A stretch of DNA of 57,060 nucleotides, filler included, from Dugesia japonica (taxonomy: Eukaryota), in the NCBI GenBank assembly GCA_001938525.1. It is 4 parts of 4 records of this genome, joined end to end, with 100 filler letters (N's around TTAATTAATTAA, not from the genome) between each part and the next. Parts side by side here need not be neighbours in the genome. Positions count along the whole stretch, not along the records: positions 1 to 17,657 come from MQRL01646279.1; 3 more parts are not named here. One strand, 5' to 3'. Shown here one piece after another: positions 2,380 to 48,809 of this stretch. The position numbers were made by a program, and so were the translations under genes. Under the pieces are notes generated by a model. That model did no database searches. It was not told the DNA's origin and saw only the letters and a list, made by a program, of their open reading frames with translations. How positions within the stretch are numbered: position 1 is the first letter of the stretch; each line of letters begins with the position of its first letter.

Positions 2380-2815
2380 ATGTTGGTTAATATTAATTAC
2401 AAAGGTAAAGTATCGCAAGGTGTAACAAGCAAAATGAAGTTTTCTATCGGTAAACCTACTCAATTTGATGACGAAAGTGGGAAATATACGTTAATATTCT
2501 TTAAATCAGGAAATTATCGAATAATGGGATGTAAAAAACCGTTGGAAATGGAAAAATTATATTAAGGATATTCGTTTGCAATCATTAACAATTGTAATAA
2601 ATTTGGGAAAAGTTATTAATTTGCATAAATTAGCAAAAGTGACAAAATGTTGGTTTGAACCAGATTTGTTCCCTGCATTACGACTTACAATGTATGATCC
2701 TGTATGTGTTAACGTATTTTCATCAGAACAAATTGCAATACTCTGTATAAAGACACCACACTATTAAGGATATGTAGATAATATAATTTCTGATTTATAT
2801 AATTTAATTGTTTAA
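2380..2815 (+). pseudogene. TATA-binding-protein-like gene (one frameshift, one stop)
   Basis: Repeat 1 LVNINYKG...KYTLIFFKSGNYRIMGCK; repeat 2 LQSLTIVINLGKVINLHKLAK..CWFEPDLFPALRLTMYDPVCVNVFSSEQIAILCIK resembles TBP YEPELFPGLIYRM..PK.VLLIF.SGK.V.TGAK. Confidence 0.8.
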
Positions 2816-3946: not shown

Positions 3947-6110
3947 NNNNNNNNNNNNNNNNNNNNNNNNNNNNNNNNNNNNNNNNNNNNNNNNNNNNNN
4001 NNNNNNNNNNNNNNNNNNNNNNNNNNNNNNNNNNNNNNNNNNNNNNNNNNNNNNNNNNNNNNNNNNNNNNNNNNNNNNNNNNNNNNNNNNNNNNNNNNNN
4101 NNNNNNNNNNNNNNNNNNNNNNNNNNNNNNNNNNNNNNNNNNNNNNNNNNNNNNNNNAAATTGTGTTACTTTGATTATTATCATGTTTTGATTGGTTTTT
4201 CTTTGTTTAAACAATATAAGTGCAATACAAAAAAAATTTGTAAAATAAAAAAAATTTTAAAAAAAAATTTAAAAAACAAAAATTTCAATTATGTTAATTT
4301 AAATCATTAAAGTTAATACTTGATGAAATAAATTAGGTTTTGTGGTGAAAGAATGTTAAAACTCAGATATTTTCGCTCAGATCCCTGTGCGCAGATGACA
4401 GNTTTCGACTCAAATTTGGTACTATTAAACAATGATTTACTACAACATGTGGAAAAAATTGCTTATTGTTGTTAAAATATCAACACTATAGTTGAAAATG
4501 TACATTGATGTATTGATATTGTTTGACAAAAATTTATTTAAAAAATTTGTCTTGTTTTTATTTGTTAATAATTAATAATATATGTTAAATAAAGACTAAG
4601 ATTCTAACATATAACAAGATTTGACCTTATTTTTGGATATTTTTTGACATAAAATAATGATACACACAGGCCCATAATAATAGATACAAAAAAGAGTATA
4701 GATAAGAAAGTAAAATGTGGGTACTAGCAAAGAAATGAAAGTTAAAATTATGATACATGCGTACATAAAATATAGATAACAAAGATAAGAGAATAGAAAA
4801 ATAGATAAGAAAGTTACAATTATGATACACACACAAATAGATAAGAATGGTAAATGTATGTAACATCAAAGAAATAAATTCCAATACACACTCAGATACT
4901 TCGTGTTCTTTTGTTATAGTTCTGTGCGTTTATCTCTTTATATTTTATTTATTTAATTAATTATGTTTTCTCCTTGAATATTAGTTCATTTTATTTTCTG
5001 TTCAATATTCATTTTTCATTAATTCTTTTCTTTTTTTGAGCAATATACTATTTTTATTACTTTTGCCTTGTATGTCCAATACTTTTAATATTAATTATTT
5101 CTTTTATTCATTTCGGGCAAATTTTTATTATTTGTTTCTCTTATTTTTCTGATTATACTTAGGAACTAAATTTCCTTGAATATTTGCTTCTTTATAATTC
5201 CTTTATTTATTAATTTATTCATCGTTTCTTTAAGTTTGTGGCTGTTTCAGCTCAACCGAATCAAATTAGAGATACTTTTTATTTTTCGACAAATCTATGT
5301 AAAATATTGAAAAAACCAAAAATGACGTCAGTGAAATTCTCAACAGATTGGTATCAAAGTTTTAGACATTTGAGCATGTGAATGATTTTGAAATTATTTT
5401 AAAATAATTAAATATTTAAACAAAATGGACTTTTCTACCGGATTTCCGTGAAAATTAATTAAAAATTATTAAATTTAGTAAATATCAAGAAAAATCATTA
5501 ACTACACTTTATTTAAACAAAAATTAAATTCACAGTGGATTACATAATAAATTGTGTTATTGTTTTTATCGCTCCTACCATAAAAAATTCCTGTATCCGT
5601 CGCTGCATGCGGGTCATATCAATCACAACATACGGGTCAAATCAATCTGAAATACATTTGGGTTATATCAATCATAACTCATATTTTGGTCATTTAAATT
5701 TTCCATATTTAATCTAACAATTGGGATTTTTCATTTTTTTATTTAAGTTGTAGATCTAGATATTAGTAAGTTCATTAGCAGCAAAATACTTTATGTTGAT
5801 GATATATGTAGATTAAAACATAAAACAACTCATGGTAAGTTAATGTATTTTAATTTATAAATTAAAATATGTATTGGAGAATTTGAAAACAATGGAATCA
5901 ATGTAGATATAAAAGAGATTGGGAATTCCAAGGAATTTCGAAAAAATGAAGAAATACAGAGTCCACGACAGATGTCAACTGATCAAGTTATTTGTTATAA
6001 CAGAAACATTATTAAAAGTTTACGTTTTGATATTTTTAAATAAACGATTTTGTTACTTGCGAACAAGCATTTCTACATCATCATATAGATCAAATTTTCA
6101 TCAATTAATA

Positions 6111-6297
6111 ATTGCCATAGTAATGAGACTTTTTTATAAAAATTGCAACAGTAATGAGAAAATTTATTATAAATTGCAACACTAATGATAATTTTTATTA
6201 AAAGTTGCAACACTAATGGGATTTTTTATTATAAATTTCAACACTAATGATACTTTTTATTAAAAATTACAACAGTAATGAGACCTTTTATTTAAAA
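6111..6297. repeat. 31-bp minisatellite, ~6 copies, runs into gap
   Basis: Unit ~ATTGCAACA(C/G)TAATGANANTTTTTATTAAAA. Confidence 0.85.
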
Positions 6298-6477
6298 TNN
6301 NNNNNNNNNNNNNNNNNNNNNNNNNNNNNNNNNNNNNNNNNNNNNNNNNNNNNNNNNNNNNNNNTAATTAAAATTTGATAACTAATATGCTTGTTTTATA
6401 GAAAATTACCTAGTTAAGGTTTTTTTTGAAAAAAGTTCAATGTTTTTATCATCTTGTAAAGAAAAGTTCTATGTTTA

Positions 6478-6755
6478 ATGGTTGCTATGTAACTATTCAA
6501 ATAATATACTCATAGATCTTTTAATACATGGTTACTATGTATAACACACTCATAATTTTTATAAAATATGGTTTTTACGTAAATAATACAAAGTAACTAT
6601 GCAAATAATATCCCCATAGGTCCTATAATACATGGTTACTATGTTTTAATACACTCATTATTCTTATAATAGTTAGTAAGTTAGTAAATAATACAAGGTA
6701 ACTATGTAATAAAACACTCATAATTCTTATAATGGATAGTTGCTATGTAAATAAT
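6478..6755. repeat. Compound degenerate tandem repeat (~20/40-bp subunits)
   Basis: Recurrent GGTTACTATGT...ACACTCATAATTCTTATAAT and GTAAATAATACAA. Confidence 0.7.
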
Positions 6756-7167
6756 AAAAATAAATGTAATTACTAGTCAAGTCAAATATGCTATCAGTCA
6801 GCACGAATTTGATGAAGATAAATATGATCACATGGAATTAGTTTTAACAAAAAACAACTCTATGACATCAAATGTAGCTAAAATATTAGTTAATGTAAAT
6901 TGGATAAAATGTATCAAGTCAGATGATTTCCAAGGAGAAAGTGATGACGTATCAAAACCAGACACAAAAATAGAAAACGTTTAATGCAATTAATTAATTT
7001 TAAATAACTTAATATCTAAAATCTATGAAAATTAAGAAAGTTAATGGAAATTCAACAAATCTTAATAAATTCAGTCTATATTTTAATCGTGGGTTCATAT
7101 ATTTTAATGAAATTACTTATAGACATAGTAATATTTTTAGTAAACCTATATGAATTTTATAAAATCT

Positions 7168-8366
7168 GGTTATCCAAATAAACATTTTGACTTAAAAAAC
7201 TACAAACTAATGTCTCAATTGATACGTAGGTAGTTATAATTTACACATGGCTGGCANCAATTTGTATATAGTTTACTATATTTTACACATAGGTGTTGAC
7301 AATTTGCTTATAGATGATAAAAATTTAATCATAGGTTATTGTAATTAGTACATAGGTGGTGATAACTTGCTAGTATGTGACTACAATTTATTCATGACTT
7401 AATAAAATTTGTATATAAATGATTAGTCTTGATGCATATTCAATTGATAAGTTAGTAAGAAGTCAAATAATTTACTTGAACAATTTGATTCTATCTGGTA
7501 CTATGTGTGATATTAATTGACTTTCCTATATTACACTGGGTTTACGGTAACACATGGGCTTTAATGAATTAATTGATTATATTGATTAACTTGAACAATT
7601 AAATTAAGATAAATGAAAGCATTGAATACAATATGTAAGTCAAATGCTAAAAAGGCATTGACTGTCTAGGTTTAATAGATGTATCAGATACATTAAATGT
7701 AGTAGGTTTATTGAATGTACTGGGTTAATTAACGTATCGGGTTTAATGATTTATATTGGTCTAGATATAAGATATACAAGTGTTATCAAATTTTCCTTTG
7801 TGATATTAAACAATTTTTAATAGACTTTACTTGTATATTCGAATAAAAATTTTTGAAAATTTGAAAAAGAATACATTTATTGCAAACAATGAATTTAAAC
7901 AAGACATATTTAAGATTCTAATACAGTTAATTACTAATTTTAATTAAAATTAATTTAAATCTACTAAATAAAACGTGTGCATATAAAATGATTACATATA
8001 TGTTTTCTAATTAATTTGATGCGATTAAACACACATAAAATGCATTAATATTAGTATAATAATCGTCAAACTTTACCCTTATTGAAATAAATCCAAAAAC
8101 AAGTACTTTATAAAAACACTTTTCTAGTAATATTAAATGATGGATGATTCCGAACAGTATTTATGTTAAAATTAGTTGGTCACGGTCAAAAATAATATCC
8201 AATCAGGTATACTTTTTGACAGGTTTTAATTATTGTATGTAATAATTTACTTTTAATGGATTTTTTTCACACCTCGCTAGTCTTTAGTTATCAAAGCTCT
8301 GAACTTTGTATCAATTGAGACATTAGTTTATAGTTTTTTAAGTCAACATGTTTATTTGGATAACCA
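7168..8366. mobile_element. ~1.2-kb non-autonomous element with 59-bp terminal inverted repeats
   Basis: 7168-7226 is the reverse complement of 8308-8366 with about 2 mismatches; no coding capacity; TSD unclear. Confidence 0.75.
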
Positions 8367-8887: not shown

Positions 8888-10003
8888 TTATTCATCAATA
8901 ATATTCACAGTATGTTTACGTGATCGTGGCACAATCATTGTGCTGTATGCATCAATAAATTGTCTTTCATCAGTACTTTGTGATTTCCAGCATTTTATCA
9001 GTTTGAGTAAAACTAATTTAGAATTTCGTCTAAATGTAACAGAGCTTAAGAAATATAAAATAAAATTTACACCATTATTGCATGAAGTTAACATTACAAA
9101 CATCGATCCTACACTGAATACAGATACTACAAAATTTTGATCTTTATTATTCTTCCACTCTAATTTTGCTTCTAAAATTGAAAAAACGCATAACGGCATA
9201 GATGTTGCAAGATGGAAAATTGTTACTGGAATTAATAATCGATTGGCAAGATTTGTTTTTTTATTTCCTTGTTTTTTTGAATGGCATGTTTCATCGGTGC
9301 ACTGAGACTTTATAATTGGACTTCCTTTAACTGATTGAGATGTGGAATTCATTTGACAAGCTTTCGTTCGATAAGCTTTAGCGTTTCTAATAACTTTCAG
9401 AATACCCAAATTAAATATGAGAAGTAAAACTGAGGGAACAATGCTATAAATAATGATATCCCAATAGAAAAATCTATGTCTAAAAGCAACATCAGAAGTA
9501 TCACAGAGACAATAATGAGTAGTTGACGGCATTATTTCTAAATGCCATATTAGAGCACTATTTTTAGCAATTAATCCCGAAAACATTAATATCCATACTG
9601 CAACCTTTCTGTAACCCCTCCAAAACAATTTAGATTTGTATGGTGAACAAGCAACAAGAAATCTTTCAAACGTCAACATACATAAAATCCAAGTAGCAAC
9701 ATCGCGAGATGAATAACTAATGAATGTATGAAACTTACACATGCTGTTATTTGTTGTTCGAATCTCAAATTTGAAAATGAATCTTATCCAATACCTTAAA
9801 GGATTGATCCATAACGCTAATGTATCAGCAATCGCAAGAGCTGTAAACACATTTCTCGATTTACCCATTGTTCGAGTGAATCGAATAACTAAAAATGCGA
9901 TGAAATTTCCAAATGTTCCGATTACAATTAGAAGTGAATAAAAACATATAGAAAAATAACGAACGAAATCATTTTTACTTGATACATACAATGAACAGTT
10001 CAT
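8888..10003 (-). CDS. Intronless rhodopsin-like (class A) peptide GPCR, FMRFamide/myosuppressin-receptor-like orphan type
   Basis: 371 aa, seven hydrophobic segments, TM1 GN, TM2 LAIAD, ECL1 Cys (MCK), TM3 LTFERF, TM5 IVP..LL, TM7 NFILY, helix 8 FRR. Confidence 0.93.
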   Translation of the reverse strand: MNCSLYVSSKNDFVRYFSICFYSLLIVIGTFGNFIAFLVIRFTRTMGKSRNVFTALAIADTLALWINPLRYWIRFIFKFEIRTTNNSMCKFHTFISYSSRDVATWILCMLTFERFLVACSPYKSKLFWRGYRKVAVWILMFSGLIAKNSALIWHLEIMPSTTHYCLCDTSDVAFRHRFFYWDIIIYSIVPSVLLLIFNLGILKVIRNAKAYRTKACQMNSTSQSVKGSPIIKSQCTDETCHSKKQGNKKTNLANRLLIPVTIFHLATSMPLCVFSILEAKLEWKNNKDQNFVVSVFSVGSMFVMLTSCNNGVNFILYFLSSVTFRRNSKLVLLKLIKCWKSQSTDERQFIDAYSTMIVPRSRKHTVNIIDE

Positions 10004-10211
10004 TTTTAATATGAAATTTTATGAATTTACTTTTCACTTCTAACTTGATTTTCAATAATGCAATCATCCAAGTAAATTATTGATATCCAATAACATTTGA
10101 AATATAATTTTGTAAATTTTCAACCAATCAAATCTATTTATTTTTATAAGCATTTTTTACTAATTATTCAACTAGAAAAAATGTAAATTATTTTTATTAT
10201 TATTATTATTA

Positions 10212-10466
10212 TTTTACAGTTGCAATTATTGCGAGAATAATTGTTGAACATAACCATTGATCGTTTATCAGAATTCATTTAAAATAAAAGCATCGATCAA
10301 AATTGTTTTTTTATTTGGTGTTTGATAGCAATTCAATATTTTGACTTAATCTTCTCAAGGAATTGACTTTTCTATTCCTGAAGAAGTTTAAGTCGAAATA
10401 TCGAATTGCTATCAAACACTAAATAAAAAAAACAATTTTGATCGAAGCTTTTATTTTAAATGAATT
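10212..10466. mobile_element. Palindromic Penelope-like pLTR element with two inverted hammerhead motifs (copy 1)
   Basis: ~90-bp arms 10272-10362 and 10374-10466 plus a ~55-bp tail; homologous to 42610-42845; flanked by (ATT)n. Confidence 0.75.
10374..10408 (+). ncRNA. Minimal type I hammerhead ribozyme motif (core intact, weak stem II)
   Basis: ATTC-CTGAAGA-A-GTT TAA GTC-GAAA-TA-TC-GAAT. Confidence 0.55.
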
Positions 10467-10550: not shown

Positions 10551-10949
10551 NNNNNNNNNNNNNNNNNNNNNNNNNNNNNNNNNNNNNNNNNNNNNNNNNN
10601 NNNNNNNNNNNNNNNNNNNNNNNNNNNNNNNNNNNNNNNNNNNNNNNNNNNNNNNNNNNNNNNNNNNNNNNNNNNNNNNNNNNNNNNNNNNNNNNNNNNN
10701 NNNNNNNNNNNNNNNNNNNNNNNNNNNNNNNNNNNNNNNNNNNNNNNNNNNNNNNNNNNNNNNNNNNNNNNNTTTCATAAGATAAATAATATTTAAATAC
10801 TAGAATTTCAATTTTAATATTCAGATAACTCAATTTCTATTGAAGGTTTTTAATTTAGAATTATTTCCTCATATCCCTCTTCTTTGGAAACTTCCTTAGT
10901 TTTTTCAAATTTCTTTCTAATCGGTGTTTATTTTCTCCTTTTACTACAT

Positions 10950-13130
10950 ACTACCTTTCATGCATTTTCTCAATTATTCGATAAGATCCTTCAAATGTGT
11001 CTTGATTTTTATTTCTTGTTTCTACGTTTATGAGTACAACATCGCCCAATTTTTTTCCGCATTGGCCCACATTTATCTGTTAATATCTCTTCAAATAAAT
11101 TGGTAGCTTATAAACTCTTTGTATTCTCTTTAGATGCTGTTCTCACTACTTTGGTCTTCTGACGAATTTTACAACTACGAACTATCTTCTGTATTTGTCT
11201 CCACAAATTCTTTGCAATATATTTGTTTCTCCTCCTGTATAACATAATAATTTGTATATTTCTTATATTGTTTCATGCCGTTTGTCATACGGAATTTTCA
11301 TTTTCTTGAGCTCTATGATCTATTCTAAGAGTAAATCTTCTACCGTACAAGTAATATTTGAAATGCATACAGAAATAATAAACAACCAATAACTCTTTTC
11401 GTGTAATGCAGTATCCATTTTCATTACTCTTCATTTAGTGTGATCCATAGGCAACAACTCTTTCTCTTCCTTCTTTATCTTTCTGTGACAATACTGTTGC
11501 AATTGTATCAAAACTGGTATCCGTATCAAATATAAATTCTTTATTTATGTCCGAAAAACACAATATTCGTGCAGTCATTATAGATCTTTTCAGATCCTCA
11601 AAAGTATCATTTATTTCATCTGTCCATTCTAATTTTTTTTGCTTGGTCCGCTACACAACTGCTCTAATATATTTGACTTTCTTGCGTAGTTTTCTATAAA
11701 CTACCTGCAATAATTACAAATTCCGAAGAAACGTCGTAACTTCTTCACACGGCTAGATTTGCCAAATGTTCTTATTGCTTATATTTTGGACGGATCAGTT
11801 CTAACACCATCCATGATAATTATTTGTCCAAGAAACTTGATTTTGCTTTGAAGAAACTGACAGTTTTCTGGATTAATTCTTAAACCAGCCCTTATTATTT
11901 CCATCAATATATTTTCAATAACTTCATAGTGTTTATCTTTATTGTTCGTTAATATCAAAATTTCATCAAGATAAACCATGGCTCCATTGATACCGCCAAC
12001 CACTTTAGTCTTCATCACCTGAAAGGTCCTTGGTGCTGCCGTGATGCCAAATAATATTCTATTAAAACAATATTGTCCGGGTTTTGTACAAACGCCGTTT
12101 TTTATTGAGATTTTTCTTCAGGTTCTACCTAATAGTACGCATTTTCTAAGTCTATTGAACGGAAATATTTTGCTGCATCTTACTTGTTCAGCCTTTCATC
12201 GACATAAGTATCGAAAAGGCTTGTCCTTTCGTTATTGTATTCAATTATCTGAAATCCAAACATATTCTTATGTCTTTCTTTTCCGTTTTCAAAACACAGA
12301 TCAGTGGGGTATTCCGTGGAGATTTTCATTTCCAGATAATATTTTACTCGAAAAAGTTTCGAATAGATTCTTCAATGTTAGATTTTTAGTTCATTGGTTG
12401 TCTATAAGGTTTTAGATTGATTGGTTCGCAACTTGTGGATATTTTGTGTCTTATCAGATATATGGGTCTTACATCCCGTTTATCTGCCATAAAAGCATCT
12501 TTTTTACTTTCAATTATTTTCATTAACCATTGATCATCTTTAATCTTCAAAATATTTAAAGCTCTTGTCAATCGCTCTCCATTTTTAATTTGTCTCACAA
12601 ATTTCGCTTCGATATTACAAAACCTTTTGCATAAGCTGATATCCAAAAGTTTTCTGCATATCTATTCCTCCTATCAGATCTGGTGTTACTCCTTCAGCAA
12701 CTAAGAAACTAATCTCTTTGTAAACTTTCACAATTATCACTCCAATTTTTACTTTTCCAACAATTTCAAGTGTACCATTATTTGCACAACGCAATCTTTC
12801 ATCACTCATTTCTAAATGCATCTCTGGTAATTTATTTAAACAACTCAAACTGATCACGTTAATTCGAGCTCCTGTATCTAATAGACATTCAACTATATTT
12901 CCTTGAATTAATACCGTAACACTTGATCTGCCTTGCAATTTATGGTACAAAATATTTGTTTTCTTTTCTGCTTCAACTGTTTCAACCCATTCTATGTTTC
13001 TATCATCCAAAAAATTTTCCCTCTTTAGGAACCTGTATACTTTTCTGTACCTTTTCCTATATCATCCCACTTTTCGACTCCTTAAGGATAATTATTAACT
13101 TCATTTAACAATGGATAGCTCCAACCAACT
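10950..13130 (-). pseudogene. Ty3/Gypsy pol (PR-RT-RNase H-partial IN), degraded
   Basis: CLLDTGARINVI (protease), EPINLKPYRQP, VYLDEILI (YLDD variant), FIFDTDTS..IATVLSQ, YCITRKELL, TLRIDH, integrase Zn region SCKIRQK..TDKCGP; PR-RT-RH-IN order. Confidence 0.92.
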
Positions 13131-13182
13131 CCTCTACTGGTGAAGCCCTACCTTTTGGGTACTAGCTTTTGGAATCACTTTC

Positions 13183-13800
13183 CTATACTTCNTCATATCC
13201 CTCGTTTATACTGACATCTTCATCTGCAATTGCATGTACTCGATTATATCGGTTTTTTGATCTTTCTGCAGTCATAAATGTCTCACTTGTTCTTTTCAGT
13301 TTTGAATTTATGTAGCACTCTTCTGCTCTATGTCTACTATTACCACATCGTTTACACCTCACTTCTTGACATAGCCTTTTAATATGATTAACCTTTCCAC
13401 AACCAAAACATTTTGTTGGTTTTTTGTTTGGAAAATCTCGACTTATATGTTCTGTTTTATAAAAAATCCAACACTCTACCACTTTTTGCGTTGGACAATT
13501 TGCTTTAGTATGATTGATCTTATGACATAACCAACATTCGATATTTTTTTCCTTTCTTTGCTCAGGATGTCTATTCTTTGTATGATTTACAGGTTTCTGA
13601 TAATTTCGATTTTTAACTCACGCGTAACTTCTATCTGCATCAACTCGATTTCTATTTTTCTCTACTCNATCTACTAACGTNATTGTTTCTTCAATTTCTT
13701 CTATATTCTCTCGTTTCCGCAAAGTCACATCTTCTTCAACATTTTGTTATCTGAACAATATACTAGCATCTTTGCTACGATTTTTTCCTTTGTAAAATCT
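13183..13800 (-). pseudogene. Ty3/Gypsy gag with four CCHC zinc knuckles
   Basis: CWLCHKINHTKANC, CWIFYKTEHISRDF (decayed), CFGCGKVNHIKRLC, CKRCGNSRHRAEEC. Confidence 0.85.
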
Positions 13801-14700: not shown

Positions 14701-17700
14701 AAACCTTTAAAAATCTCTCATTTTTTTGTAATATTATTATTAATCAATTTTTTTTTTAATAACATATAAAATTATTTTTCAGATCAATTTCCAGAATTTT
14801 TAATTCAATTATTTTTCAATTTCAATTTCTTTATTTTTCTCATTAATTTGTATTAATATTTGTCTTCATTTTCATAATCTTTATCGTTGAAAATAATATA
14901 TCTTTTCTAAACGGTTTTGAACTAATTATACAGATATTTCTTAAATGTTTCTATAAATAATCATTGTTAAGTAAATTGCAATTTCTAACAAATCCCTAGA
15001 GATAATTAATTTATAATTTGAGTATGTAAATATCAAAATAAAAAATATACATTCTCTGTTTTATGAGCTTATTAAATATTTCGACGAGTCTTGATCAGAA
15101 ATGATTGTCCAGTCATACAATTCTAATGGAAACTAAATTAAAATTAATTTCAATCAAATCAATTATTATTGGTTAAAAAATTACATTAGATTCATTGAAA
15201 ATATTTCCGATTAATTTGCATAATTATTTTATGACTTTATTGGATTTCAAAAAATTGTATTTGATAAATACAGATCTAAAGTTAACAAGTTAAAATAATT
15301 ATGACTTCATATCTTAACTATATTTCTTCATTAATGTTGTTTTTCAACCTAACTCTCGTTTGCTTCCAAATTGATAATTAATGTTATGGCAAAATTAGAT
15401 TCCTCTGAATTTATATATTAATTTTGATGTTTCTTTGATTTTGTATTTTTTACAATTCAAATTACGGAATTTTTTTATCTTTAACATTTCAATTTTTTTT
15501 AATCTTGATTCCTTTTTTAACATGTGAATGTGTTAATTCCTGAAGTAGTCATAATTATCTTTTAAAATTGAGTGAAAAATCGAAAGGAGCCTAAATTTCT
15601 TTGATAAAATTGTTGTGGGAAAAACTGGTTGTATTTTACTATAATAAATTTTACAGACAAACATTAGAAAAATATGTCTTCTAAACTTTAAAATTAAGAA
15701 TAATTTCAGAATTATTAATAACAGTTTTTGTTTCTGATATTTGAATAAATTTTTTTATTTGAAATTGGATAATAAATATAAACAAATAAAAATTTATTAT
15801 TTTAGAGTATTTCCGATAGGAAATATGTTCTAATGAAAGTAACATAACATTTCAATAAAATATAAATAATAATCTTTAAAAAAAATGTTTTTCTTCAGTC
15901 TATGTAAATATATTTCTATTTTTTGTTAAATTTTAAATTGGAATTGTTTAAATGTACTGANNNNNNNNNNNNNNNNNNNNNNNNNNNNNNNNNNNNNNNN
16001 NNNNNNNNNNNNNNNNNNNNNNNNNNNNNNNNNNNNNNNNNNNNNNNNNNNNNNNNNNNATTAATGAAAAACATATAAATTACAATTTTCTAACTAAATT
16101 TCTTTTTGACAAAAATAATTTTATTAATAATTATTAATTATTTTTTTATGATTGAATTATTGTTGAGAAACATTTCGTTGGTTATTCAATACTCAAAAAC
16201 AATAAACAAAATAAAGAATTAAATTTTGCTGACTATTTAAACAACATTTTGTATATTCGAAATTTATCTTAATGAACTTTTGTTAATAATTTTTATCTTA
16301 TCATATTTCACATTTCAATTATCAAAATAAATATTTTATTTTTTTTGAATTATTCAACTAAATATTTTATTATAATTTCTTGAAAGAATTTAATCTACTG
16401 AAATAGGCTTAATGATATGTTTATAAAAAATTCAATTTANNNNNNNNNNNNNNNNNNNNNNNNNNNNNNNNNNNNNNNNNNNNNNNNNNTGCAAAACAAG
16501 GAAATGAACCACTGAAATTAATAAAAATAAAATAATGCCATTTAATAAAATATTTTTTGACAATTAATTTCGATGAAATAGCTGTCATCATAAAACAATT
16601 AAAAATCATTAAAATACTCTATTTACAAAGTTTAAATGATCATGTAATTTCAAGTATGTTTTCTCAATAAACAATCAATAAAATAATTTTAAGAGAATCC
16701 ATCATTTTAACATTAATTTTAGGATTAAATGTCCTTATCAACAATGCTTTATACACTACTTTCTCCTAATTATTATTAAATTCATTTAAAAATATCTTAA
16801 AATCATAAAAATCCATTGAATTTAAAGATCTTCTTCGAAGAGAAGATAAACTGCTAAATCACTGTCGTGTCAGGAATAATGGATAACAATTATTCCATTT
16901 GAACGAGTAATTCCTAGTAAGTGCAAATCAGTAGCTTATGCTGATTACTTCCATACCCATTTTACACACCACCGTCACTACGACCGACTGAAGGGTTTGG
17001 TGACATCGCTGTATTCCGATTTAAGAAATGACAAGATTTATATAAATGGGAAAGGACAAACTTTGGCATTTAGAGAAAGTAAATGTCGTAAATTCACGTT
17101 CATAAAAAAAGATTTCAAAGAAATAAAAATGGCAATGGATTAAAACCATAAAATTATTTTGTTGTAAAGTTATTTGAATAAAAAAAATTCATGTTATTTA
17201 TGAAAACCATTTGATTCCAAAACGAATTTTAGAATAAAAACTAAATTCAAACCAAATAATAACAAAATAAATAATTATTGTTAATTGTTTATAAAAATAC
17301 AGTATTAGTTAATTTGATATTTCATTGACATCATAAACAAATAATTACATCATAATAAATTTTTTATAAATTTTATTACAAAACATTTTAAAATAAAAAT
17401 AATATAATACAATATAAATATTTACAAATATGATATTTAAATGAGAAAATCTTTGGCTTGAGTAAATAGATAGTAGTGGCAAGATAGATAGTAAAAATTC
17501 ATCCCAAACTGACCGATCCCGAGGAAATAATTGACCGAATCACCCAAAAATTACTTAAACTGACCTCACCGGTTCAAAAAATTAACCTTATTCAACCTCA
17601 CTGAGAAAAGTTCAGACCAAATTCATCAGAACCAATCAAAAATCAACCGCATTCGACNNNNNNNNNNNNNNNNNNNNNNNNNNNNNNNNNNNNNNNNNNN

Positions 17701-18212
17701 NTTAATTAATTAANNNNNNNNNNNNNNNNNNNNNNNNNNNNNNNNNNNNNNNNNNNNAAAAGAAAATTTTTTTTGTGGTTTGTTTACAAATTTTGTTTAC
17801 ATTTAAAAACCATTTGGATTGCAAAAAATTAAAAGATTTGTTATTTAAGAAAGCTTTTTGGTGTCTTTAAATTTGATATTATAATTGATTAAATTGGTAT
17901 GCATAATTAGTTACGTAACCAAAACTTTTAATATATAAGCATTTTATAATTAAAATTAAGGATTAAATCTGAAGATGACAGATATTCTATGCAGTACAAA
18001 ATGATATATTTAAATGGCGTTTCGATGTTTTTATAACAAATTGCCGTTTCCTTCGATTATTTAAATATTAAAAGTATTTCATTTTAATTAACTAATAAGA
18101 TTTTAATTTAAAATCAAAAGATTGATTGAACAATAAATACAATAGTTTAATTTTCAAATCGATGATTTAAAATTTTAAAATTGTAAACATTCAAAATTAA
18201 TTTCAAATTTAG

Positions 18213-21200
18213 GTTTTCAAGACTTTTTAAATCGAATAGTCATAATGTACTTGAGAAAAGTAAAACAGAAATAAAATCTAAATCTATTTTAAATGAGGGG
18301 TAAAATTTAAGTTTTATTTCATATAAAAATAATATTACTAGCAATCGCGATCTAACTAGTGAATGCTTTGCATTAAAAGATCCAAATAGGCAACAAATAA
18401 ATGGCTGGTCTTTACCTCGTTTGACACAAAATTTAACACCTGATCTTCCGATGCCGATTTATTGCAGACCATTATTAGAAAATCAATGTGGTTTAGAGGT
18501 AAATGTTTCATTGAATTTCATATGAATTTCTATTATTATTATTAAATTATTTTTATTATTACTTTGAAATTTTTTTAAATTTTAACGTAATCAGTACAGT
18601 TTCAATATTTGTATTTTATTAAATTATTTGTTTATGTATTTGCAAAATGTATTATTTTATCAGTCTGACTCTTTAATAATTTCAACTCTTGAATTTTCAA
18701 TGGTCATAGAAAATTAAAAGTACTTGTTTTCATTAAGAAAGTAAATCCCGGTATATTCGAAATTATATTATAATTTTATCATAAATTATCAATGATCTTC
18801 CTTGTGAATCATAGGTATTAAATAATTTCAAAAAAGTTCCTTTTTATCAACTTTAATGTTTTCATTTATTATTTTTTAATAAAGTTCATTTCAATGACTG
18901 AGGTGAGTATGCTTTTGCTTTTTGAATAAATAATGAATTTAATCTGCTTGATTTATTAAAAAAGTTAAATTCTATAAAAATAATATTTTCTAAAATTCTC
19001 TTACATAAAATTATTTAAAAACGAAAAATCTTGGCGGTTGAAGAAAAATATAAATTTTGCACTTTTAAAAAATAATTTTAATATAAAATAATAAATATAA
19101 TTTTCATGATAATATATAATAAATGTTAATATATAATAATAAAATAAAAAGTGAACAAAGAAAATATTTTCCAACACAATAAATAATTAGAAAGTTGTAA
19201 AGGTACTGAAATTTTTTTTGTTATAATATTTTTAAAAAAATATTTAAATAAAATTGTGAATTGCTAAAAATTCATGTAGAAAATTTTGAATATCGTTTTA
19301 GTGTATTTTTAACTTTTTTGAAGTGGTTGTATGCCATTTTTAGTCTTCTATAAAAGTGTGAATCTCATCGAGTTTCCCACACAAGCTATTCTTAGTATGA
19401 AATTCTTGGACCAGTATTTCCTACTAACCTTGATGTTAGTGATATGTTTTTCATGGTTCCGAAAGCTAATATTACGTGTTTGGTTTAATTAGTTTTGGTC
19501 TGTTAAATAACAAGACTGAAATAATCATCTATTAAACNNNNNNNNNNNNNNNNNNNNNNNNNNNNNNNNNNNNNNNNNNNNNNNNNNNNNNNNNNNNNNN
19601 NNNNNNNNNNNNNNNNNNNNNNNNNNNNNNNNNNNNNNNNNNNNNNNNNNNNNNNNNNNNNNNNNNNNNNNNNNNNNNNNNNNNNNNNNNNNNNNNNNNN
19701 NNNNNNNNNNNNNNNNNNNNNNNNNNNNNNNNNNNNNNNNNNNNNNNNNNNNNNNNNNNNNNNNNNNNNNNNNNNNNNNAAAATTCAGCTAGGAACATGA
19801 TAGTGTCAAAGATTATGAAGACTTCAGGAATCGAAGAAAAGATCAGTTAGATTGTTCGAAAAGATAGAAGACAAATTAAGATATCATTTGTTACGAAATC
19901 TGAATCTTTTCACATGATCATGAAATCAACAGACAATAAATGTATTGCTTAAAGTCACATTTAGTTTCGTTGAAGTTGTAAAGAAAAAAACTGTGTATTT
20001 TATATTGGAATTTTTATCTTATTTACTATTTAAGAAAAATATTTACGGAAATTCTAAATTCTTTAGTTATAAACATTAGTTATAAACAATATAGTTGTTT
20101 CATCTAATGACGTCTTACTTGAAAATACTTCATTGAGTAGCTTTTTAACTCTAATTTCAAAATTTCGATATTTTTCATTTGGTTTCTGCATTTTTTCTGA
20201 CTTTCGAAACTTTATCAACCAATGTTTTCTGAATAATGAATGATTCTTGAAACCAACGTTCACAAATTTCATTAGATAATTTCTCAACTTCTTTTGTTTT
20301 CCCAACAATAATTCCTTAGCATTAGCATATCAAATGCAAACGATAATTCCATCTGATTGTACGACGCAAATTCTTTTGTTGTTTAAAGACACTCTTTATC
20401 TGTATCTGACACTCTTTAAATCCATCAAAGAATCTCGGCTTTGAAATTAGTAACTCCAGAGTTGAAGACGGTAATTTCGACAAAAAGTTTTGTCTTTCAT
20501 CTTTTTCTTTGGTTGCCATCGTGTTCACTGTAACGTGGTCGCCAGTTAGAACACAAGATTCTTCCATAAATATTTATTTATTAAAATTCAAATAATAATT
20601 GCAAAACTGATAATACATGGGCTGTTTTTAAGTTCTGCATATGGCGGCATATAAGCTTCCGATAATAAAATTTTATATTGTAAAACAGACACCAATATTT
20701 AAGTAATTGATATTCAATGTTTTGTTTAAATTTATCAATTCATTTATTAGTAGTGATTATTTTAAAATCTCAATAAACAGAAAAAATGTATTTACGCAAA
20801 GAAAATATTTGGGCAATAATTTTCTATAATTATCGAAGAGGATTTTCTCAAGAACAATGCCGATCCGAGATGATGTATGTTTTGGGGGATAAAGTACCAC
20901 ATCAGTCGACAATTTCACGCTGGTACGGCAACTTAAAACGTGGACGCTCTAATCTCACATATGACCGAAGAAATGGTGCACCAAGAACAGTAGTCATCCA
21001 AGAAAATATTGATCCTCTGCGTCAGCTAATCAAGGAAGATCGACATGCGACATATAGTAAGATGGAGTCTTACTTGGGAATTTCAAAGACCTCATTGCGA
21101 AAAATCCTGCATGAAAAATTGGGTGTAAGAAAATTAGTTTCCCGTTGGATCCCACATCTGCTACCTAATGAACAGAAAATGGCTCGTGTCAATTGGTGCC

Positions 21201-24200
21201 AAAAAACTTTGACCAGTTTTAACAACAAGCTTAAAAAATATCTGCAGCATTATGTATGGTTACGAATCTTGGATTTACTCATACAAGCCTCAGAATAAAC
21301 GTCAATCTTTTGTTTGGGTAATCCAACAAAAGTTATTCGTACCCGTAGTGTGTCAAAGAAGATGGTGGCAACCTTTGTCGCAAAAGCAGATCATGTCGCT
21401 ACAATCGCTCTGCACAATCAGAATACGGTGACTGCGCATTGTTATACAACAGTTTGTTTGCCAAAATTATTTTCAGTACTCCGAAAAACAAACAGAAGAC
21501 GAAAAAATATCCTTCACCATGATAATGCCANATCACATACCGCTCAAATGACAACTGAATTTCTAGCTTCTCAAAACATCGAACTATTGGATCATTCTCC
21601 GTACAGACCTGCTCTGAGCCCCAACTATTTCTTTTCGTTCCATAAGATTTAGAATAAACTTCGTGGTCAACGGTTTCAGTCACCAGAAGAGGCAGTAGAT
21701 GCTTTCAAGATAGAAATTTCGGCCGTCACAGCTGATGAGTGGAATAACTGTTTTAACAGTTGGTTTGAACGCATGCAAAACTGTATTAATCTTGATGGAG
21801 AATATTTTGATAAACAATAAAACATTTTGAGTCTTTTTAGTCTTATTTTTATGGCTGTATGCAGAACTTAAAAGACAACNTACATATTTAAACAAAGTTT
21901 ATATATCAGTTTATAACTGTCAAAGATATAACTGTCTCTATAAATGAATAGCAAGTTCCCAGAGATAAATAAAGCATCTATATTATTTCGCGACACCAAC
22001 ATAATTTCCACAGGCTGAGCACCACTGTTGCAATTGATTATTATATTTTTAAGCTAAAAGTTATAAATTTTTTAAGATTTTTCTAATTTTCAATAAAGTT
22101 TTTATTTGTTTCAATTTTCTTTTGATGTTAAAACTGTAAATACCCGTGAGTTATTTTCATTGAATTTAAATGACAGCTGTTAATCTGTAATAGATTCTTA
22201 ATTTTAAAATTTAGGCCTAAAAACTCGATAAAACGGCTTATCTTTTAAAAATGAAATTTAATAAATTTTCGGTAATATTTGAAATTTTGTGTCGCTAAAA
22301 TAAACTTTTAAAAATTTAATTTTTAATTTTGTAAATAAATTTCAACATTTTATCATATTANNNNNNNNNNNNNNNNNNNNNNNNNNNNNNNNNNNNNNNN
22401 NNNNNNNNNNNNNNNNNNNNNNNNNNNNNNNNNNNNNNNATTGATGATAAATTTCAATCTTAAATTTGATCTTTTTGAATGAAATGTTTTTGAAGGAACT
22501 GATATCATAGGTAATTCTCTTTATAAAAATAAATTTTCTATCTGGTGAGAATTGTAACACTTTAAATAGCGAAAGAAATTTCTAAAATTATTTTTTGATT
22601 TACACTCTTCATTTTTGTAAAAGTATAAGTTAAAACCAATTTTTTTTAATTCTTCATCAAATGATATATTTATGTAATTGGTTGTTACTTTGTTGATTGT
22701 GATAACAACCGACACAAACGGTTTAAAAATAGTTTTCCAGTAATTAGCAAAGCGCTTTTAATATTCATTATTTTGCATTATATATTATTTTAATACATAA
22801 ATATTGACAATATTGGTGNNNNNNNNNNNNNNNNNNNNNNNNNNNNNNNNNNNNNNNNNNNNNNNNNNNNNNNNNNNNNNNNNNGCTAATATAGATATAT
22901 AATTTAGATTACTTGTGCTGTTTCAGTAAATTTTTCGAGAGGATTAAATTTGAAAAATAATACTTATGTCGGCTCTAGCATATTTTATGGTAAAAATATT
23001 TTATATCCAGACTTTTCGAAAACTGAAGGAAACATGAAAGTTATACTTTATACATTATTTATATTTATTGATGTTTAGCAAGAAAATATAAATAAAACTG
23101 AAACGTTATTCAATACGAATTTCGATAATAATGGAAGTCATGTGTGGATATGTACATCATCTGATAATCAAAGTCAAATTATAATTGTTGATGCCAATAA
23201 GCCTGCTGATTATTTAGATGCATTTATTATTCAAAACTCACCAGTTCAATGTATGGGTAGTGTGCCAGGTATATATTTTAAAGTAAAATATTTAAAATAA
23301 AATATTGAAAATTATAAAAATATTGTTGAATAATTTTGATAAGAGAATACTGTTAATGTAAGTGATAAGAGAAAATTATCAACATCAAGACTATATGTAT
23401 ATGTTGTGATTTAATAAAAGGATAATATCAATGGTTAAACAAATGTACTATACTTTTATCCAGTAAACAGTATATCTTTTGGGTTAAATTGTCTAAATCA
23501 ATTATTGCACAATGTAATAAAGTGCTTTTTCACAATTATCAATCAATACAGTTCACACATCACATCGAAACTTGCACCTAAAATGTACACCCCCTAGCGT
23601 GCATACACACCCTTTTTGATCTGATCGCCAAAAAATTTTAATTAAAATAAAATTATACAGATATAAAAAAAGAATAAATGAAAACAAAAAAATGGATCAT
23701 ATCAAAGAAATTGAATAAAAAATGTATAATCCACTAGATCAGAAATCTATAATTGATCAGCGGTGGGTGTTGTGGCTACATGCGCCACTATCTCCTTATT
23801 GATATCAAAATCCATCTAAAACAACTTGTCGACAATATTGTTTATTGGAGTTGAAATATCAACATTATATCTGTTGGGTTTTTAGGATTTTGATGATTAA
23901 TTTTTTTAAAATTCTCTGATCTCGCTTTCATTTAAATATTTTCTTCGTCATGTCTAGGGACATAACTAAAAACCACAAGCATTTGTGTCGCCTCTGTGAC
24001 ATGCTCCTCTTTTCCACGGGTTCAGCGCGACTATGTGGTATCGCGTCTTGCTAAATTTATGAACCCTGACAGCAATAACTCCCATGCTCAGTAAACAAAA
24101 ATAAATCTCAAATCGAAAACAGAATTCCGTCAAACTCTACATTTATTTATTATTTTCCGCGAGCGATTACACCTTCACGATGATGGGCATTGGCTGCACT

Positions 24201-27180: not shown

Positions 27181-29220
27181 CATTTAAACAATCAAGAAAA
27201 GGGATCATCAATAATTATTATAAATTACGAAATAGATAAAAGATTGAACTTTCAAATGATATGAAATATTGTGAATATTTAAACAAATTGTGCAAACAAA
27301 ATAAAATAATTAAATGAAACTATTAAAAAACGACATTATTTTCGCCCCAACCTAGTACATAATTTTTATTGTCAAAACGATTAATAATTTCGGTTTCATT
27401 AATTGAAATATTGTTGAGAAAATTTTCCATTAAAATTTATTAAATATAGGTTTGTTTCCTAAAATAATATGGAATATTTAAACAAATTTGCTTATAATAT
27501 TTTAATAAGACTTCTTTTTTTCAGCCTTAGTAGATATGAAAATGTTATATAGAAGCATTTGACACTTTCAAATAATGAGTTTTAGTAATGTGGTTAAAGA
27601 TTGGATCACTCGAGGTATAATTTGCGAACGATACAGATATATTTCCTACAATGTTGAATCTATAAATAATACTACCGTATTATAAAAAATATAAAGGGAG
27701 TAAATATACACGTACACACCAGAACAGTTGAGAAGGATTTGGGTCTATTATGTTCGAATTTGGTCAATTTTGGTAATAAATGTCATCTAGTTGGTTGAAA
27801 TTGGCTTGGGGTGGTCAAAACGTTTCTCATTCAGGTTGATTTTGGTTAATTATATCCTCGCAATGGTCGAATTCGGTTGACTTTGATAAAAAATTTGCTC
27901 GGAATTGTCGATTTTGATAAGAATATTCCTCGGAGTGGTCGAATTTGCTCAAATTCGAGGAAAAAGCTAATTTTGTTTAAATATTTTAATTTTTTAAAAG
28001 TAATGAAAATTTTTATGAAAATCCGTGTAAACGAACCAAATTTTACAAATGTTTTGAAAATTTTTATATTGAGATTTTTAGACCAATCGACTCAGGGTGA
28101 CTTAGGATTCATTTCTATCAAGAAAAATCTTTGCGGAAAATAAAAAGTATCTCAAATTTGATCATTAACCTGTCTATTCGATAGAGAATTTTACACTGAT
28201 CATAACTGGCCTAGTTAAAAATAGCCAAATTTTATTGGGGGCTTAGGAAAATTTGATAAACCCGANNNNNNNNNNNNNNNNNNNNNNNNNNNNNNNNNNN
28301 NNNNNNNNNNNNNNNNNNTAGAATTTTTCGCTTATCAAGAAAATATCACATACAATTACTTAATTTTGAACGAGAAAAATCGAAAATCATGGTCAAAAAT
28401 CCCGAGGATGCTTAACAGACAAATAAAAAATTATTTTTAATTTTCATCCAAATTTAATGATTTATATACCATTCGATGCAGAATTTTTCAATGATCATGA
28501 AAATAGGNNNNNNNNNNNNNNNNNNNNNNNNNNNNNNNNNNNNNNNNNNNNTTAATTAATTAANNNNNNNNNNNNNNNNNNNNNNNNNNNNNNNNNNNNN
28601 NNNNNNNGTTCTCCAAGACCTATGACTCCTCCGATGAGTCAAGGTCTTTGTTCAAATCGGCGATGACTCATCATTATGACTAATTTCTTTGTTACAAAAA
28701 ATATGAGTCATACAAATTTTTCATAATCATTATTTAATTTAGCTAATTACTATTTGCAAGAAGTTTATAAGCGACTAATATTTCTTAGTGATCTAGTGCG
28801 CTACTATCTACNNNNNNNNNNNNNNNNNNNNNNNNNNNNNNNNNNNNGAGTGTTCTAACACTCTCAGAGCTATATCATGACAAAACAAGCAGCTTACGTG
28901 TCTTACAACGTGGTATTTTCCATAATTTACGAGGATGTAATAATAATCACGTGTTGCAACGTTCCATAACTGAAACACGTAATTGTTGGCGATGTTGTGT
29001 ACGAGAATGTCGTAATGATATAGATGTGATAAGGGTTTATGGAAAAAGAAAAACAAATTGGAAACTAGTTAATTAATTAAAACATTTGAAAACGTTCAAA
29101 TATTTTTCAATTATTTTTCATAAATATAATTAAATTGGTAATCAAAAAGTCTAAATATTTATTAAAAACTACACAAAATTATCAATTATCAACTATAATC
29201 TATCATCTTGAATATTCGAT

Positions 29221-29901
29221 TTAGGAGACAAAACTAAGATAGGGTTTTTTGAAAAAACATTTCCCAACAGCTATCACACCTACAGCACCTACTAATGGCA
29301 TTAATCCACCAAATAGACTAATTCTAAATCCTAAATGTCTTCTTTCCACATCTACAAAACAAATTTAACAAATTCTATATTTTACCAATAATATTCTCAC
29401 CATCAGCTGTATAATAATGAGCATACAAATATCGGCCAATCAAATACAAGTTACCGGCAATTATCGTGAATTTCTTAATTAAAATCAATCATTTCATAAC
29501 ATCATCAGAGTAATCAATAAAATTATACTGGAAATTCNNNNNNNNNNNNNNNNNNNNNNNNNNNNNNNNNNNNNNNNNNNNNNNNNNNNNNNNNNNNNNN
29601 NNNNNNNNNNNNNNNNGCTATAATATGTTACTAATTTTGATGCGAACGTTGAATACAATTAAATTCATCGCTGGTGCTTGAATACATAGCAGGGCACTAG
29701 TAAATATTTGAAACTATCTAAGCATCACAATTACAAATTAACCTTCACATTATATTTTATACGAGCTTTTGCTACTCTATACATCAAATAGAAGTTCAAC
29801 AAGTATGTTTCAGCAAGTATCATTAATACACCGCCATATCCCATAATGGCAACTTCATTATGAACAATTGAATGAAAATCTTTAGAAATAAAACTTCCCA
29901 T
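29221..29901 (-). CDS. MGST3: Microsomal glutathione S-transferase 3-like (MAPEG), paralog 1; exon 3 partly in gap
   Basis: VAKARIKYNVK|CPAMYS..FNCIQRSHQN...YLIGRYLYA; same exon structure as paralog 2. Confidence 0.88.
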
Positions 29902-32008
29902 CTAAAAATATTTAATTCTATACTTGTGACCAATTCATTTAAAAAGTATTAATTTCTAATTTATACTTTTTAAATAAATCTAATTAAATAGAATTTACTA
30001 AAGATATCTTATTAAATATTTTTTATTGGTTAAATAACATTTAATTAACCTATTATTTATTAATCAATAAATTATTAATTAATTCTATTTACTAAAAGCA
30101 ATATGCGTGACCTCGAAATTTTATTATTGATTATCTTAAACAAACTGTAGGCGCGTGAAACGTATTATACTATTAAATAGATTGAGATCACGTTTTATAA
30201 AAATAAATAACTTATTTTTTAAATGCAAATACATTACAAAACATTATTTTACCTTGAAAAAATACTAAAGTTTTGGAAGTCTTGCATTTATTGGTTATTT
30301 ACTTATTTAATGACTGAATTGTAATATAAATCTTAAAATATTTTTTTAAAAAATGATTTATGTATTTAATAAGAACATTTAAATTAAATCGAATTGTTTT
30401 AATTTCGTTACAANGAAAACTGTTGTTAGAGGGACATTATTGAATAAAAATAGTTTCAAGTTAAACAATAATTGAATATAATTTACTTTAACCCGTAACG
30501 TAAGGTTTTGCAAATCCTTACGAAGTTACTACTGAATTATTTAATTTTCGTCTAAAAGAACATGAATTATTTATCGATTAATTAATATTTCCATAATCTC
30601 TATTTAGTAAATGTCTCGACAGGTATATTAAATTTGATTTGTGTTGANNNNNNNNNCTAATGAAAAGCAATAGTAATATTTATGTGATGTCTAATTATTG
30701 ATTGTAAAGAAATATTACACTTGGATTTGTGTGTATATTTAAGACTGAATTGAATCTAACTTTTCATTTAATGTTTCCATTGTATAAGTTCGTATAATAA
30801 GTCTGATAAATAATTTATGTTAAAATTAATTGAGGTTTATACAAGGAAAATAAATATGGAATTTCAATTTTTCCTATTACAATTATAATTAAATAAAAAT
30901 TCAATTTTCCAAAAAATTTAGGTATTTAGACCCAAATATTGTCATAATAGAGAATGCAAATTTTTTCAACTCGTATGAGTTTGGGAGGATATTCCAAGTG
31001 TTAAAAATCATAATATCTGCTTTCTGTACTTCGTGTTCATACAGTGGTATGTTTCATCACTGTCTATGTTATTGTATTTTAGTAGCTGTGTATGGTGCTC
31101 ACCCATTTACACGATAGTTTATATTATGCTCATGACATTCGATGATGGCTTACCGCATGGTTAGATAATTTTCTAGATTTTATTCTTGCACTGCTTTTAA
31201 ATCTGGTCCTCACTCAACCAGAACGAACTGAAAATAAATTGATAATATTTGCAGCGGAAAATAATAATTTTCTGAAAATTTGCAAGTACTTATAAATAGG
31301 AAATACTGCAAAATTACTTATACATAATTCAATATAATTGCTAAATTTTAACATATAATTCTTATCTTTAACTGCATCTAATTTTATTTTCATAAATCTT
31401 ATTTTCTCTTTAAATAATATGTATTGAATAATAATAAAAATAATAATATCGTAAATAATAATTTTACATTTTAATACTTTTTATAAAAATTATAATAATA
31501 TAATTTTTCTACTTAAATCTGGCGGATAATATAATACTTTATTGTTTATAATAGTGATGATGATTTATTTCGCTCTTCTTTTCTTATTCTTTCTCTTTAT
31601 TCTATTAAAATGTTTCAACTTAATTATTTTTTTAATCCTTTTTTTCATTAATATAATTTTATTTTAATATATGAATACTTTTAATACATTTATATAAACT
31701 ATGAATAAAAATATATAATACTTATTTCGCTTATATTCTACTTTTCGATCTCTTTAATTTATTTAGAAAAATATTAAACAGTTTGTAGTATTGGCTGTAG
31801 ATCTGAAATATAAGGAAATTAATGTATACATACAATCATTAACTTTTCCAGTTTTTAACATACATCAGATTGAAGAATTATTAATTAAAGAAGATACAGA
31901 AGATCAATATAATTTATAATAATAAAATAAATTAACCAAGTAGAATTCAGTAAAATTAATTCAAAAAATATTTCTACTTTAACAAAAAAAAATTGAATAA
32001 ATCAAAAA

Positions 32009-32150
32009 GTCTATTCCTGACGAAGACAAAGTCAAAAATTTGAAATATTATCAAGAAATAAAAAAAGAAAGACAATATTTTTATGGAAGCTTTTAATTTA
32101 ATGAAATCTCAAATGGTTAAATCCTACAATTATTCTCGAAATAATTGTAA
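32009..32150 (+). mobile_element. Decayed single-arm copy of the hammerhead element
   Basis: CTATTC-CTGACGA-A-GAC AAA GTC-AAAA followed by the family tail AATGGTTA...CAATTATTCTCGAAATAATTG. Confidence 0.6.
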
Positions 32151-34309: not shown

Positions 34310-34988
34310 TTAGGAGACAAAACTAAGATAGGGTTTTTTGAAAAAACATTTCCCAACAGCCATCACACCTACAGCACCTACTAATGGCATTAATCCTCCA
34401 AACAGACTAATTTTGAATCCCAGACCTCTTTTCTTTACATCTACAAAGTAAATTTAACAAATTCTATATTCTACAAAAAATATTCTCACCATCAGCGGTA
34501 TAACCACGAGCATACAAATATCGGCCAATCAAGTACAATTTACCGGATATTATTGCGACTTTCTTAATAAAAATCAATCGTTTAATAACATCTCACAGTA
34601 ATCAATATAATTATACTGGAAATTCCAGACCACAAACTAACAGAAAAGGAATAAAAAATGAAGTATTTTCAAGACTAGAATTAATTTTATACATTACAAA
34701 ATTAACTGTAACTTGTTACTAATTTTGATGAGAACGTTGAATACAATTAAATTCATCACTAGCTTCTGAATACATAGCAGGACACTAGAAATTTATTTGA
34801 ATATTTAACCAACACAATAACGAGTTAACCTTCACATCATATTGTTTACGAGCCTTTGCTACTCTATACATCAAATAAAAATTGAGCAAGTATGTTTCAG
34901 TAAGTATCATCAATACACCGCCATATCCCATAATCGCAACTTCACTATGAATAATTTTATGCAAATCTTTAGAAAAAAAATTTCCCAT
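34310..34988 (-). CDS. MGST3: Microsomal glutathione S-transferase 3-like (MAPEG), paralog 2
   Basis: Exons 34830-34988, 34720-34784, 34617-34674, 34490-34562, 34310-34440; introns 45, 45, 54, 49 nt; FNCIQRSHQNYLE and GRYLYARGY motifs. Confidence 0.92.
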
Positions 34989-42768: not shown

Positions 42769-42770
42769 TT

Positions 42771-48800: not shown

Positions 48801-48809
48801 TTTGAAATG

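Follow-up and report, generated by a model that had tools for sequence, protein, structure and literature searches.

A family of short repeats in Dugesia japonica was found to have as its mobile unit a piece of about 165 nt, made up of a fixed 5′ end, a minimal hammerhead motif, an A-rich linker and a 60-nt hairpin tail. Three copies lie in the window, by which we mean the whole stretch of DNA that was analyzed (57,060 nt, assembly GCA_001938525.1), and thousands of pieces of the family were found in public contigs. The fixed ends, the variable joints between arms and the greater likeness of the two arms within a copy argue that the unit is this hammerhead-plus-tail piece and that the palindromes in which it occurs are likely products of insertion. 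We consider it probable that the unit is the pLTR and tail of a Penelope-like element (PLE), and that the palindrome is made at insertion, with the mirror arm formed anew each time.

Copies in the window and their surroundings

Two palindromes, at 10212–10466 (copy 1) and 42610–42845 (copy 2), align end to end at 77% and have both ends in common. Each of them is an inverted repeat with arms of about 75–100 nt, to which a 60-nt tail is added on one side only. The tail contains the hairpin CAATTATT-N5-AATAATTG, and all eight stem pairs are intact in each of the three tails of the window. The original prediction, which had described two palindromes with common ends, a long inverted repeat and a one-sided hairpin tail, is confirmed in these features. 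It did not include copy 3, at 32005–32158 (+ strand), which consists of a single arm and the tail without a mirror arm, shows about 72% identity to copies 1 and 2, and has a hammerhead core broken at G12 and its tail hairpin at 32127–32147.

Copy 1 lies within an (ATT)n microsatellite and is composed, head-to-head, of an inverted arm, a full arm and the tail, the tail-bearing arm having its sense on the minus strand. Its tail occupies 10212–10271 (−), with the hairpin (stem of 8 bp, loop of 5 nt) at 10223–10243, and the tail-bearing arm covers 10272–10370 (−), bounded by the fixed 5′ end (AAAAG) and by GAATT, with a left hammerhead motif of broken core at 10329–10365 (−). The inverted arm, which has no tail, is found at 10371–10466 (+), and its right motif at 10372–10408 (+) has an intact core and mismatches in stems I and II. 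Copy 2 is a head-to-head insertion, also in minus sense, within the remnant of a hAT transposase. The tail (42610–42669, −) has its hairpin at 42621–42641, and the family's fixed 3′ end lies at 42608–42610; the corresponding fixed 5′ end is at 42773, at the limit of the tail-bearing arm (42670–42773, −). The left motif, at 42730–42766 (−), keeps the core and both stems, with a predicted cut between 42736 and 42735. The inverted arm without tail (42772–42845, +) shows an internal deletion of about 18–21 nt, and the right motif (42769–42805, +) has lost stem I, with the core and stem II intact.

Read with the tail last, the unit runs through AAAAG, stem I, CUGANGA, an extra A, a stem II of 3 bp, GAAA-UA-UC and stem I′, followed by an A/T-rich linker of about 55 nt that ends in GAATT, and then by the tail with its 8-bp hairpin; GAATT as a fixed second end is based on the two palindromes of the window only. 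The centres of copies 1 and 2 are unlike, as the inverted arm begins 4 nt further 5′ in copy 1. The predicted fold of copy 1 is one long hairpin (−111.4 kcal/mol, z −17.9) and none of 200 shuffles folded as well, so that read-through RNA would form a duplex, as had been expected.

The window is AT-rich (20–33% GC per 2 kb) and contains many N gaps. It also contains three identical spacers of 44 N, 12 nt and 44 N (17658–17757, 28508–28607 and 44405–44504), which are assembly linkers without biological meaning. A frame of 376 aa for a GPCR of the rhodopsin family (PF00001) was found at 8888–10018 (−). Copy 1 lies about 200 nt upstream of it, with the tail-bearing arm and the GPCR frame on the same strand, and may be in the promoter or the 5′ region of this gene. 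The hAT transposase remnant (DUF4371; 41898–44200, +), which is split by copy 2, is decayed by stops and frameshifts and shows 50–76% identity to intact homologues. Other remains of mobile elements include an element at 7167–8366, whose terminal inverted repeats are 59 bp long and 97% complementary and whose interior is found again at about 39971–40658, a broken mariner transposase (HTH_48; 20777–21652, +), and a broken Gypsy-type element (10850–13620, −) with pieces of a zinc-knuckle-like gag, protease, RT, RNase H and integrase. Three broken frames of a viral fusion glycoprotein family (PF24664; 49935–50794, −), with a gag-like frame nearby at 53128–53583, probably belong to the env-like gene of a retroelement that has decayed. 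Polinton-like remnants occur at 604–2102, 37629–38306 and 55419–55988, with parts again near 48300–49500; they include an integrase with chromodomain and pieces of a protein-primed DNA polymerase B, and one frame without a Pfam match resembles a packaging ATPase. An 80-aa frame at 2525–2764 (+), adjoining one of these remnants, matches TBP (PF00352) above the cut-off. In addition, there are short tandem arrays at 6104–6298, 6489–6753 and 44542–44754 (periods of 31, 104 and 28/40, respectively), and a pair of repeats at 29130–29908 and 34219–34995 (85–90% identity, 5.09 kb apart) that are possibly long terminal repeats.

The hammerhead motif

The original prediction had proposed a hammerhead search as a check. 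With a minimal-hammerhead descriptor, this search returned three loci in the window, all of which belong to the family; 200 shuffles, made block by block with approximate preservation of dinucleotides, gave a mean of 0.055. When a stem I of at least 2 bp was required, one locus was obtained against none in the 200 shuffles; the match at 32017 had relied on a spurious downstream GAAA and has no stem I. The hammerhead-like motif is more frequent than chance. Core and both stems are kept in one of the five arms, the left arm of copy 2, with G-U wobbles, and the core of the left motif of copy 1 reads CUUGAGA, with AAAA in place of GAAA. Most arms in the window have a broken core or stem, and the hammerhead consensus is a reconstruction. 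The earlier statement that each arm carries it was not confirmed: among the four palindrome arms it holds for the left one of copy 2, and the majority letters of public contigs restore the motif stems at three positions, 42744, 42761 and 42800 (among 40 of 67 variant positions listed).

The assignment of the motif to the minimal type I hammerheads of PLEs was supported. The available part of the comparison by Cervera and De la Peña (2014, PMC4209133) gives, as the consensus in metazoan PLEs, an extra base after A9, a G10.1-C11.1 pair and a palindromic 15.2-16.2 pair, all of which are found here; the family shares with these hammerheads CUGANGA with one extra base and the G-C at the base of stem II, and its GAAA-UA-UC is as in the minimal hammerheads of Nematostella and Latimeria. 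It differs in its stem II of 3 bp with a 3-nt loop, which does not appear among the examples in that part of the paper, and the Schmidtea example given there belongs to another family. As with the metazoan motifs described there, most copies are solo and dispersed, and some form opposite-strand pairs; in Schistosoma, dual minimal hammerheads were reported 100–700 bp apart on opposite strands (PMC4209133).

A working ribozyme finds less support than the motif. According to the same source, PLE minimal hammerheads do not cleave as monomers and are cleaved weakly as dimers (PMC4209133). The monomer folds of the five arms do not have the hammerhead shape as their minimum, as expected for this class. 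For the best arm, the double-hammerhead form has an energy of +4.4 kcal/mol in the nearest-neighbour model, compared with −9.5 kcal/mol for the best cofold, so a working dimer is not predicted. No stem pair had changed on both sides, among only five arms. Furthermore, a palindrome has its two motifs on opposite strands, and they cannot form a dimer within one RNA. A pile-up of read ends, as a sign of cleavage, was not listed in the RNA runs X21 and X22, libraries that are poorly suited to this purpose. The proposal that divergent transcripts pair through AUAU and cleave is not borne out by this dimer energy, by the lack of covarying pairs or by the read ends, the last being a weak test. The Anolis Poseidon PAc element likewise lacks RNA-seq read ends at the hammerhead cut site, does not need hammerhead cleavage for insertion, and has been reported to receive protein help, according to the portions available of Frangieh et al. 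(2024, PMC11167929).

Rfam gave no match in the window at E ≤ 1, and its 21 sub-threshold matches to copy 2 included none from hammerhead families; minimal hammerheads are apparently not modelled there, so this null is not counter-evidence. A pattern scan of viral and prokaryotic genome collections yielded no match. Two pattern matches in metagenome contigs were attributed to chance, as they have GC-richer, coding-like and unrelated flanks and lack stem I and tail. A bacterial promoter scan returned 7 sites against 5.7 expected, with a model that is not applicable to animal DNA.

Fixed ends, variable joints and the mirror arm

A search of public runs listed 24, none of them with half of the query words. 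Four were aligned to copy 2 and its flanks at 80% likeness: X1, whose kind is not on record, X2, which is probably DNA, and X21 and X22, which are RNA reads (6 and 25% of the run covered, respectively). The family-wide numbers below rest on this one alignment of four runs. The aligned contigs numbered 26,650 in X1 and 21,479 in X2, and the summed depth, which is not a copy number, was about 3 million on the tail against 60–400 on the flanks. The three copies in the 54,935 called bases of the window amount to about 55 per Mb, which leads by rough inference to a family size in the order of 10^4 copies. The unit was covered by reads in both orientations, as expected of copies embedded in host transcripts.

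Among the loose ends listed (24 of 701), 688 X1 contigs, 616 X2 contigs and 580 X22 reads stop at 42608–42610, and 80 X1 contigs stop at 42773. The flanks beyond these points are unrelated, with an agreement of 0.46–0.49 at the former and 0.45 at the latter. Therefore, both ends of the single arm-plus-tail unit are fixed. The ~250-bp palindrome was not upheld as the discrete mobile unit, given the existence of single-arm copies (copy 3 in the window and the 80 X1 contigs) and of joints with variable breakpoints. Eleven of the 15 joints listed, out of 66, link a point of the tail-bearing arm within 42643–42717 to a start of the inverted arm within 42770–42785, with a short side of only 21–27 letters at 80% likeness, and nine of these 11 are present in both X1 and X2. 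In three of the 11, the tail arm stops at 42673–42676.

At the joints with a truncated arm, the inverted arm has sequence that is missing from the cut tail arm and so is not a fold-back copy of it. This bears on another route by which a PLE could give rise to the mirror arm, in which the terminal T run of the cDNA would pair on a nearby AA and the cDNA would then be copied as far as GAATT, where either the endonuclease or the tail hairpin would halt synthesis. Self-priming of this kind, on an antisense template, is proposed for the head-to-head palindromes of rotifer Penelope in the part available of Arkhipova et al. (2013, PMC3846280), and both centres in the window fit one or two T:A pairs with a loop of 4–8 nt. 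However, equal microhomology is expected from the joining of two cDNAs, and fold-back cannot yield the 11 joints whose inverted arm contains the hammerhead while the tail arm ends before reaching it. We therefore regard an origin by fold-back as unlikely.

The arms are more alike within a copy (91.6% identity in copy 1 and 87.0% in copy 2) than are the same-side arms between copies (81.0 and 84.4%), and the informative columns favor the within-copy over the same-side grouping by 5 to 1 with four arms and by 14 to 3 with three arms. This greater likeness could also come from gene conversion or from two subfamilies; gene conversion could mimic it, but not the variable joints. A discrete palindromic, retrozyme-like element of 250 bp, replicating as such and with ribozymes that cleave as an intermolecular dimer of divergent transcripts, would account for the ends and the approximate centre common to two of the three window copies, for those public contigs that run through the centre of the palindrome (records 8, 15 and 16), and for the restoration of the stems by the family majority letters. 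It is hard to reconcile with single-arm copies, variable joints and the unlike centres of copies 1 and 2, as well as with the unfavorable dimer energy of +4.4 kcal/mol and with unit ends that do not match the cleavage site. If palindromes were the rule, a twofold depth would be expected on the arms; the raw RNA depth of X22 was instead about 980–1,170 on the part common to both arms and 1,230–1,500 on the tail, a rough comparison in which repeats near 42828–42864 were skipped. We consider such an element quite improbable. The label retrozyme-like finds no support either. The non-LTR retrozymes are head-to-tail tandems with same-sense ribozymes, in the part available of their description (bioRxiv 10.64898/2026.07.22.740005), whereas the motifs here are on opposite strands, and no head-to-tail tandem with at least two same-sense hammerheads was found among the three window loci. 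The family does resemble these retrozymes in being composed of short non-coding repeats with type I hammerheads, related to PLE pLTRs and with many dispersed monomers.

With regard to variation among public contigs, the 40 variant positions listed of 67 include two in the loop of the tail hairpin, none among the 16 positions of its stem, and a single one in the catalytic core. The latter changes G5 to A (window 42758) and was found at 9% of depth in X1 and 30% in X2 (30–34 contigs), and in 2 of 174 X22 reads; it possibly marks an amplified and little-transcribed subfamily.

Insertion, relation to known elements and meaning

The target of copy 2 was reconstructed by aligning hAT protein homologues across the site, in a remnant that is frameshifted elsewhere. 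By all four homologues examined, the insert measures 238 bases, which is two more than the 236-nt element. Since only 2 nt lie beyond the element, there is no long target duplication. A transposase-type duplication of 8–10 bp is unlikely, as read from this alignment, and a 5-bp duplication of AAATA was considered but set aside on account of the 2-nt excess. A 2-bp TA duplication may be present, and copies 1 and 2 can each be read with TA at either end. Insertion into AT-rich or microsatellite targets with a variable or absent duplication, as in PLEs, was observed, a feature made weak by the AT-rich window.

Another candidate is a non-autonomous DNA element, either Helentron/HINE-like or MITE-like with a TA target, in which the hammerhead would be captured or incidental. 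MITEs have terminal inverted repeats at both ends and a transposase-type target duplication, and every copy of a Helentron or HINE has short subterminal inverted repeats that are fixed. The hairpin near one end, the little or absent target duplication, the TA at both ends and the very high copy number agree with an element of this kind. The termini are not mutual inverted repeats, however: the 60-nt tail shifts the inverted repeat away from one end, copy 3 lacks it altogether, and the inverted arm, of about 100 nt, is optional and variable. Having a fixed 3′ end and a ragged 5′ side, the insertions show the polarity of reverse transcription, and the motif agrees with the minimal hammerheads of PLEs in every feature listed in the available part of PMC4209133. 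We hold a DNA element to be very improbable.

The PLE reading is favored by the layout, which is the inverted partial pLTR with tail anticipated by the original prediction and described in the portions available of Craig et al. (2021, PMC8557442) and of PMC3846280. In the former, the standard PLE structure includes an inverted, 5′-truncated copy and a one-sided tail of 30–40 bp. In two of the three window copies, the 5′ side carries a partial copy in inverted, head-to-head orientation; we also observed a fixed 3′ end (42608–42610) with variable 5′ truncation (42643–42717), and a one-sided tail of 60 nt in both palindromes. Every structural feature of PLE insertions that we tested was found, and formal membership depends on the partner ORF. 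No Penelope partner with RT and GIY-YIG domains and the same pLTR, for which the original prediction had proposed a search, was found among the 252 window frames compared with Pfam (a subset of the 278 frames of at least 45 aa). In copies 1 and 2, an open frame of 22 codons starts from an ATG lying 4 nt within the end of the arm and passes through the tail; copy 3 has this frame open as well. A frame of this length arises by chance with 14% for a given frame, and in some frame in 39–42% of shuffles. The pLTR and tail of the rotifer element Pen2a encode the first 22 codons of its ORF, in the available part of PMC3846280. The 22-codon peptide gave five candidates in a protein search, none at E ≤ 10, and no usable match in the Atlas.

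For the PLE reading, we propose the following steps. The RNA would begin at the AAAAG end, where transcription likely starts within the pLTR, either of an autonomous element or of the short copies; in Penelope of D. virilis, transcription starts inside the pLTR according to the available text of PMC8557442. A Penelope RT/GIY-YIG protein would bind this RNA, and AT-rich DNA would be nicked on both strands. Priming from one nick would take place at the end of the tail, and from the other at GAATT, 60 nt upstream. Both cDNAs would run towards the 5′ end of the RNA and be joined head-to-head by a T/A microhomology of 1–2 nt, and a single priming event would give single-arm copies such as copy 3. 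The hammerhead would be a passenger in the window copies, being mostly decayed; as the palindrome motifs are on opposite strands, one transcript has one sense motif, locked in duplex. Taken further, we tentatively propose, as a possibility rather than as the expected outcome, that the family is a 165-nt SINE-like unit driven by Penelope, with its own start site and in the order of 10^4 copies, whose insertions record twin priming from two nicks and two fixed RT start sites. If this is true, the joints at 42673–42676 would be cases in which the first polymerase ran into the second primer, with both of them on one RNA.

Several points of the proposed insertion steps have counterparts in the Anolis Poseidon PAc element, for which the part available of PMC11167929 reports that both target strands are cut and extended, that ATT is preferred, and that two internal RT start sites delimit the tail. 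Here as well, a stem-loop tail is found between two fixed ends and the targets are ATT-rich; the start sites of PAc were shown in vitro with protein, whereas in D. japonica they are deduced from insertion ends. Judged by the available parts of PMC3846280 and PMC8557442, the family is like EN+ PLE insertions in having a partial repeat inverted head-to-head, a tail on one side, solo pieces and AT-rich or microsatellite targets, and its unit size is near that of the 181–218 bp pLTRs of rotifer Pen2. Unlike EN+ PLE insertions, it has no ORF between or beside the repeats, its tail is of 60 nt instead of 30–40 nt, its common 5′ end is sharp in unrelated flanks, and copy 2 lacks a duplication of 8–10 bp.

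In our literature searches, with subscription papers and Repbase outside their scope, no description of this family was found, and neither was a link between Penelope inverted repeats and twin priming among the two papers listed. The repeat and the motif are real and their architecture is already known in other animals; as neither the parts nor the layout are new, this is in itself an ordinary finding. What makes it useful is that the family is short and very abundant and has two sharp ends, so single, head-to-head and truncated insertions can be counted, and such counts can decide between the joining of two cDNAs and fold-back as the origin of the inverted pLTR. It also advises caution, as hammerheads paired on opposite strands are by-products of insertion and not a double-ribozyme device. 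If the unit is indeed SINE-like and inserted by twin priming, D. japonica would offer a genome-scale natural test of how the inverted pLTR is formed, a question left open by the PLE papers in the parts available, and the family would supply its host with long hairpin RNA in large amounts.
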